64,000 nt of DNA from an uncultured Candidatus Binatia bacterium (GTDB lineage: Bacteria; Desulfobacterota; Binatia; Bin18), in assembly GCA_965214605.1 (NCBI GenBank), contig OZ243961.1:1600001-1664000 (forward strand), read 5' to 3'. How positions within the stretch are numbered: position 1 is the stretch's first letter; every line of letters begins with the position of its first letter. Positions 61,037-64,000 of the stretch are shown in pieces. The translations under genes and the position numbers were made by a program. The notes beneath the pieces were generated by a model that saw nothing but the letters and a program-made list of their open reading frames with translations, ran no database searches and had not been told where the DNA came from.

Positions 61037-61357
61037 TTAAGACCGGATCAAATCGTGGGCGCGGATTGTGACCGAAGGAGCCGACCCGTCCTCAAAAAAA
61101 TAATCCTCAGTGACCTGACTCATCGGTCCAAACTCCAGGTTCATGGCGACCGTGTCCTCGCTCGGCCACCAACGCAGGCGCACACCGAGTGCCCCGGCCG
61201 GCACCTCATGTCGGGTCGGGCGGCCGCCCGACCCGTCGTAAAAATAGTCGCCCTCCTCGCCCTCACGCGAGACCAACCAACTGCCCATCCAGCGCTTACG
61301 GCGATCTTCCGCCAGCTCGGCCTCACCCCAGTCCACAATCAATCGGTCCGGTTTCAT
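61037..61357 (-). CDS. Hypothetical protein
   Basis: 106-aa ORF whose start overlaps the amidohydrolase stop (ATGA); ends 10 nt before the MFS gene. Confidence 0.65.
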   Translation of the reverse strand: MKPDRLIVDWGEAELAEDRRKRWMGSWLVSREGEEGDYFYDGSGGRPTRHEVPAGALGVRLRWWPSEDTVAMNLEFGPMSQVTEDYFFEDGSAPSVTIRAHDLIRS

Positions 61358-63464: not shown

Positions 63465-63605
63465 AACAGCCTCCTTGGTAGCCCAACAGCCCGCGCTCCT
63501 CATAGCAAAGTCCCGCCCGGACCGCAAAGCGGGGGGGAGGGAAAGGGGGAATGTCAAAAGGCAAATGGAGAGGGAGTCCCTTCACGGCTGCGCCCGATCT
63601 TAGCG

Positions 63606-63643: not shown

Positions 63644-64000
63644 ATGCACCCGAAACTCCAGTCCCTCGACGAAGCGGCAGCCGGAGTGCGGCCGGGGTCC
63701 CTGCTCGGCATGACATCGGCCGTGCTCGACAACGCTCCCATGGCTTTTTTGCGAGCGCTGGTCAAACGCGGGGTCGACCGCCTTGGGCTTGTGACTCTGA
63801 CCGGCGGCGGACTCAACGCCGATCTGCTGATCGGTGCCGGAGTAGTGGACAGCTACGAAACCTGCTCCTGTACCCTCGGTCCCTACGGCCCGGCTCCCAA
63901 CTTCCAACGCGCCGTGCAGGCGGGCTTGATCAAAATGAAGGATAGTACTTGAGGGGTGCTGTACAGCATGGTCCAGGCTGGATCAATGGGGGTGCCCTTT
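63644..64000 (+). CDS. Family I CoA-transferase subunit A (GctA-like), 5' part, with in-frame TGA at 63950-63952
   Basis: PMAFLRALV, GLNADLLIGAG, GPAPNFQRAV; reading through TGA continues as GVLYSMVQAGSMGVPF, which matches the family's AG..GVPF segment. Confidence 0.82.

Follow-up and report, generated by a model that had tools for sequence, protein, structure and literature searches.

A putative selenocysteine codon at the active-site position of a CoA-transferase-fold alpha subunit in an uncultured Binatia bacterium

What does an early TGA mean when the reading frame around it otherwise stays open? The question is raised by the last few hundred bases of the window, by which we mean the whole 64,000-nucleotide stretch of DNA that was analyzed (G000:C1:1600001-1664000 of the genome). 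A gene starts there with an ATG at 63644 and runs into an in-frame TGA at 63950-63952, its codon 103. The initial annotation, made from the letters of the window, took the gene for a candidate selenocysteine-containing CoA-transferase. Its selenocysteine half has stood up well to comparison with other genomes. Its CoA-transferase half survives as the name of a fold, PF01144, and probably not as the name of the classical reaction, because the partner beta subunit is without the catalytic Glu loop. With a probability of about 0.9, we consider the best explanation of the locus as a whole to be a selenocysteine codon in the alpha subunit of a non-classical enzyme of the CoA-transferase fold. Judged by sequence comparison, what looks like a premature stop is almost certainly a codon for selenocysteine, placed at the active-site position of a CoA-transferase-like enzyme. 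The features on which the argument turns are as follows.

63644..64000, + strand: 5' part of the alpha-subunit gene of a CoA-transferase-fold heterodimer, 119 of its 288 codons lying in the window (reading frame, PF01144 and PDB matches)
63950..63952, + strand: TGA codon 103, probably read as selenocysteine (same-column conservation, Cys homologues, independent assemblies)
63967..63988, + strand: SECIS-like hairpin (frozen synonymous codons, covariation, likeness to the selD hairpin)
64514-65242, beyond the window: beta-subunit gene, 242 codons, starting 4 nt after the alpha gene

The TGA lies where it was first described, and the frame, which at that point could be followed only to the edge of the window, continues in the genome sequence. 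Read through the TGA, it meets no other stop until a TAG at the window-equivalent position 64508-64510, which makes a gene of 288 codons. From the TGA to the end of the window the frame reads GVLYSMVQAGSMGVPF. The start Met is common to the orthologues. An in-frame ATG at 63551 was tried as an alternative start and rejected: the extension it would add is unconserved, and one orthologue has a stop seven codons upstream of the aligned Met.

How widely is the TGA kept? Sixty relatives were searched in six frames, and 22 of them carry an orthologue, 57-85% identical to this gene and each with an internal TGA (19 full length, two cut by contig ends and one a pseudogene, in G007). When these are translated and aligned, the TGA column is identical in 22 of 22. 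Further afield, an even draw of 400 other genomes from the phylum yielded 20 with a homologue at E <= 1e-45, now at 35-64% identity. One TGA stands at the same column in 19 of the 20; the remaining one (G214) has Cys. The identical stop at the identical column is found in 41 genes, down to 35% identity. It had been proposed that homologues should be aligned for either a Cys or a conserved TGA at this column, and both were seen.

The protein databases tell us what else the column can hold. A HMMER scan of 1.84 billion representatives returned 2025 matches, and we read the column in the best 150 of these together with P0006, a full-length relative. The residues were E in 53, C in 41, N in 10, G in 9, H in 7 and others in 17, with a gap in 14 rows, all of them fragments. 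Nearly all the closest full-length matches among the best 150 of the 2025 have D/E-x-[ST]-C-[PG] at the column, and the Cys motif of the closest full-length database homologues is D-[ST]-[ST]-C-[PG]. Examples of Cys at the selenocysteine position include P0006, P0124 and L068. The initial annotation had proposed a D(A/S)TCP motif for related subunits; the motif is real and can be read, for instance, in P0133 and P0139.

A bacterial selenocysteine codon is accompanied by its SECIS hairpin, for which bSECISearch reportedly applies a rule of spacing and of a G in the apical loop. The alpha gene has a hairpin close to the 3' side of its UGA, with G in the apical loop and with conservation at the level of RNA. 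Its apical stem of six base pairs (63970-63975 with 63979-63984) closes a GGC loop (63976-63978) and begins 17 nt past the TGA, and at the base two more pairs, 63967-68 with 63987-88, lie under a small internal loop. The structure had first been drawn as TGGTCCA-GGC-TGGATCA, at 63969-63985 and 16 nt past the TGA. That hairpin is there, except that 22 of 40 distinct rows do not pair at the outermost position of the proposed 7-bp stem. A lower stem, GGGGTGC with GTGCCCT, had also been suggested; it appears in the minimum-energy fold of this sequence but is not conserved, 69.3% of its cells being paired against 67.7% in shuffles and 68.8% when the register is slid by -2. The fold of the single sequence is unremarkable (z = -1.88; 10 of 200 shuffles fold as well), and it is because of the comparisons across sequences that we place the hairpin beyond chance. 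Among 182 informative codon columns in 20 full-length orthologues, only TGA103, CAG111, GCT112 and GGA113 are without synonymous variation, and the last three of these form the top of the hairpin. Across 41 sequences, pairing holds in 89.2% of hairpin cells. Covariation scores 0.315, compared with 0.166 in shuffles (0 of 500 reach the observed value) and at most 0.086 when the pairing partners are slid. Six of the nine pairs change on both sides, an example being the closing pair, which goes from A-U to G-C. An Rfam scan of 151 bases around the TGA found no SECIS family, its only match being a chance one to a lncRNA (E 6.5). The recoding signals, their conservation and the position of the TGA in the alignment are all direct observations.

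From these we infer that selenocysteine is actually inserted. SelB and selenocysteinyl-tRNA would read the TGA under the direction of the hairpin that lies 17 nt past it, giving a full-length alpha subunit of 288 residues. A genome without the selenocysteine machinery would have told against the idea, and selA, selB, selD and tRNA-Sec are all present in this one. The three proteins score above their curated cut-offs, at 583 bits for selA, 382 for selB and 388 for selD, and the tRNA-Sec gene (anticodon tca) adjoins selA. Two further sets of genes lie beyond the window.

G000:C1:1899798-1900724 (locus L011): selD, itself a selenoprotein gene, with an in-frame TGA at the classical site, KAAGUAGKLGP
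G000:C1:1674318-1676369 (about 10 kb past the end of the window) and C1:1452834, 3839037, 697624 and 1560411: formate dehydrogenase alpha homologues

The selD gene has a hairpin of its own, GGUCC-GGC-GGACC, 12 nt past its selenocysteine codon, whose stem and loop motif are nearly the same as those of the alpha gene. The formate dehydrogenase alpha homologues of the genome are all free of in-frame stops. Of two genome-wide hairpin scans, which gave mostly off-frame noise, the first missed selD and the other, with a loose motif, left the alpha gene and selD as the only plausible selenocysteine genes; they do not amount to a census of the selenoproteome. Nor does the distribution of the pathway discriminate. 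Of 61 relatives, 56 have selA, and so do 371 of the 401 genomes sampled from the phylum; since selA is nearly universal in the group, its co-occurrence with the alpha gene is uninformative. One orthologue-bearing genome (G029, 97% complete in 170 contigs) has no selA match at E <= 1e-50.

If the codon is read as selenocysteine, what might the residue do? The alpha and beta subunits both match PF01144 (CoA_trans) at 59 and 67 bits, respectively, with a cut-off of 23, and their genes lie side by side in the two-subunit layout of class I CoA-transferases, as they do in 35 of the 40 loci examined. The curated NCBIfam equivalogs of known CoA-transferases are reached by neither subunit; the score against pcaI/scoA TIGR02429 is 30 bits where 128.5 is the cut-off, and against atoD NF007394 it is 16.7 where 315 is the cut-off. 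In the PDB, the alpha subunit matches GctA (1POI, 1.2e-32), AibA (5MZW, 6e-28) and IpdA (6COJ/6CO6/6CON, about 1e-21), and the beta subunit matches their partners GctB, AibB and IpdB. A PDB search with a 47-residue piece gave no useful alignment. We envisage that alpha pairs with the beta subunit of the adjacent gene, and that the resulting enzyme belongs with GctAB, IpdAB and AibAB in one branch of the class I CoA-transferase fold.

Glutaconate CoA-transferase, GctAB, is the best solved match for both subunits (6.1e-23 for beta), and relatives of our protein carry its name in public annotation. However, GctA has Gln opposite U103, and the catalytic Glu of GctB sits in an ESGL loop that is deleted here, a four-residue gap in our beta subunit facing both ESGL and the CVGS of AibB. 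Class I CoA-transferases keep their catalytic Glu in beta, in an ESG/SENG loop; in the corresponding region of 35 beta orthologues, no Glu is conserved at 95% or above. AibAB, the 3-methylglutaconyl-CoA decarboxylase (5MZW and others; 4.5e-18 for beta), shows the same fold serving a reaction that is not CoA transfer, Cys56 of AibB replacing the catalytic beta-subunit Glu of the Gct enzymes, as a passage of PMC7756340 has it. Our enzyme does not follow this pattern either: AibA has Gly at the selenocysteine column, and where AibB retains its Cys56 loop we find the gap opposite CVGS. For SCOT, a passage of PMC12817287 names Gln99 among the residues around bound CoA.

The third system, IpdAB, is the COCHEA-CoA ring-cleaving hydrolase of steroid catabolism (PDB 6CO6, 6CO9, 6COJ, 6CON). 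It shares the fold and the alpha/beta two-gene layout, and its alpha subunit can be aligned with ours along almost the whole chain, at E 2e-21 to 1e-20. In this alignment U103 falls opposite the single residue that differs between 6CO6_A, where it is Glu, and the deposited variant chain 6COJ_A, where it is Ala. We take this residue to be Glu105, the catalytic base of the hydrolase. The key residue has apparently moved to the alpha subunit in both systems, but here it is selenocysteine (or Cys) and not Glu, overall identity is low and the steroid-catabolic neighborhood is absent, the neighbors being amidohydrolases, a cyclase-family protein, thrC and RidA.

Because the beta Glu loop is lost and U103 lies on the column of the IpdA Glu, we infer that the alpha-subunit selenocysteine or Cys does the chemistry, and that the chemistry is of another type than classical CoA transfer through a glutamyl anhydride. 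Sec103, Cys in relatives, would act on an acyl-CoA-type substrate as catalytic nucleophile or base. It might, for example, attack a carbonyl covalently, in the manner of a retro-Claisen cleavage of a ring or chain; a passage of PMC6678751 gives retro-Claisen hydrolysis as the reaction of IpdAB. A more specific proposal, and a speculative one that we would not yet bet on, is that Sec103 is the nucleophile of a reaction type new to the CoA-transferase fold, where the glutamyl anhydride or the Glu-activated water would give way to an enzyme intermediate of the seleno-acyl or seleno-hemiketal kind, and that this enzyme is a main reason the lineage keeps its costly selenocysteine pathway.

It could be instead that the selenocysteine is genuine and the enzyme an ordinary CoA-transferase, Sec103 being non-catalytic, with a redox-regulatory or structural part to play. 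The fold and two-gene layout are after all those of class I, and GctA, a true transferase, has Gln at the column. We nevertheless think this unlikely. An ordinary transferase would hardly be expected to dispense with the catalytic Glu loop of its beta subunit, with no conserved Glu to be found there in the 35 orthologues, or to keep selenocysteine or Cys so strictly at the column where IpdA has its variant-changed residue.

The selenocysteine reading has also to answer the databases, where the gene is almost always in pieces. Among the matches listed in the protein database, 119 of 120 relatives are C-terminal pieces of 167-193 residues, among them the public gene call for this genome (P0004, 174 aa). 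The sole full-length relative among the matches listed, P0006, is 53% identical and has Cys at the TGA column. Might the gene callers be right, the TGA being a true stop and the locus encoding two separate polypeptides, the second starting from the ATG of codon 109? The fragments fit such an arrangement, and so does selection: comparing this gene with 19 orthologues, we obtained dN/dS of about 0.07-0.19 upstream of the TGA and 0.07-0.18 downstream (only where dS could be computed, dS being saturated in many pairs), values that indicate purifying selection on both sides and that two separately translated parts would also produce. Against this, the GVLYS of codons 104-108, between the TGA and that ATG, is conserved as protein, and the distant TGA-bearing homologues have no Met at the position of codon 109. 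Uninterrupted homologues carry Cys at the TGA column, and two polypeptides would leave both the conservation of the hairpin and its likeness to that of selD unexplained. We give a split gene very little credence. On the selenocysteine reading, gene calls have cut the family in two, so hundreds of copies would be misannotated and their active-site residue missing from the databases.

A nonsense mutation, a pseudogene or a sequencing error would be a more mundane explanation still, as a single in-frame stop looks much like a fresh mutation. The initial annotation had noted that reads with TGG or TGC would count against selenocysteine, and independent assemblies keep the TGA. Two runs from one other study gave contigs that span the full 961 bases and show 0 differences, and a 151-nt contig from a third study spans the TGA and the hairpin, again with 0 differences; a fourth run (X7) has no coverage at the TGA site. 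Assembly error is excluded as the source of the TGA. Nor does the gene look like a relic. Selection downstream of the TGA appears intact, and the same stop is shared at the same column by genes as little as 35% identical. We know what real decay in an alpha gene looks like, since G007, of the same genus, does hold a decayed copy (L036, G007:C1:3380187-3383648): it has a frameshift, a 10-residue deletion and a second TGA at a Cys codon, and its match ends at residue 194. Such an origin for the stop studied here is scarcely credible. Decoding of TGA as Trp, Gly or Cys, by a reassigned code or unprogrammed read-through, fares as badly. Any code that gives TGA a residue does leave the frame open. 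But TGA is the ordinary stop of the neighboring beta-subunit gene and of thrC, other frames read through it fill with extra 'U' and look nothing like protein, and a dedicated hairpin and a complete selenocysteine pathway are at hand.

Where does the selenocysteine form sit in the family? Our FastTree phylogeny has 92 rows. Representatives of fewer than 250 or more than 340 residues were excluded, and from those within these lengths we also removed 33 of 48 Glu rows and 28 of 40 'other' rows. The three partial or decayed copies and seven paralogues free of stops were left out as well. Our alpha gene lies inside a clade of 28 selenocysteine sequences (support 98), whose successive nearest sisters are the Cys proteins P0006 and P0124 (SH-like support 96 and 94). 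Eleven more selenocysteine sequences are placed elsewhere, among Cys forms, and on the 92 rows the selenocysteine label requires at least 2-3 changes. There is a sister selenocysteine subfamily, one member of which, P0274, is about 40% identical to our protein. The subfamily has the same fold, selenocysteine at the same column and a hairpin core of the CCAGGCUGG type. This gene belongs to a different clade, that of the 28 sequences, with the signature KD[ST]TU-GV[LM] and Cys sisters of its own.

In its in-frame UGA, its downstream hairpin with a G in the loop and its Cys homologues, the gene resembles the bacterial selenoproteins with a SECIS inside the gene, of which the organism's own selD is one. 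Unlike them, it belongs to a family that we did not find among the named ones and has no Rfam SECIS match. Searches of main texts did not find the family named in the selenoproteome review of 2026 (PMC13188914), in deep-Sep (PMC12013277), in a review of 2022 (PMC9312934) or in a preprint of the same year that describes eight new families. The main text of BSepDB (PMC13326102) likewise does not name it; the 111-family list of that resource may include it. Searches of the 2007 Olavius and 2016 ISME papers turned up no relevant mention, and full-text literature searches brought up unrelated papers only. The type of selenoprotein was not found in published catalogues, although supplementary tables may list the family.

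Known selenoproteins are mostly redox enzymes. If our reading is correct, selenocysteine would stand at the catalytic position of a fold that handles acyl-CoA, selenium would serve a wider range of chemistry, and the family would offer a natural series of selenocysteine, Cys and Glu at one active-site position for mechanistic study.

The surroundings of the gene say little about its substrate. The neighbors within the genus comprise, besides a cyclase-family gene and an MFS transporter, a bona fide thrC, RidA, an Amidohydro_3 gene, and an Amidohydro_2 gene accompanied by a 106-residue ORF. Comparison of neighborhoods across lineages revealed no consistent pathway and no pointer to a substrate, and the names of the Cys homologues ('CoA transferase subunit A', 'glutaconate CoA-transferase subunit A') are generic and therefore give no functional lead. 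Several smaller observations can be recorded. Directly upstream of the alpha gene, 10 of 19 family-level loci (L049:6265-6864, with matching places in L020-L026, L028, L030 and L031) have a free-standing gene for the archaeal ThrRS editing domain (PF08915, 118 bits), accompanied in three of them by a PNPOx-like gene; the editing-domain gene is present in other genera and absent from the upstream position in the genus of the window. In L050 (G021:C16:8627-23484), a TGA-bearing alpha gene has no beta gene following it at the threshold used; its flanking genes encode a biotin carboxylase/carboxyltransferase fusion of 1163 residues and a thiamine-diphosphate enzyme. The 106-residue ORF, at 61037-61357 on the - strand of the window, has no Pfam or NCBIfam match and travels with the adjoining Amidohydro_2 gene in five of ten wider loci. 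Toward the other end of the window, between 2142 and 14726 on the - strand, twelve tRNA genes lie in three clusters.
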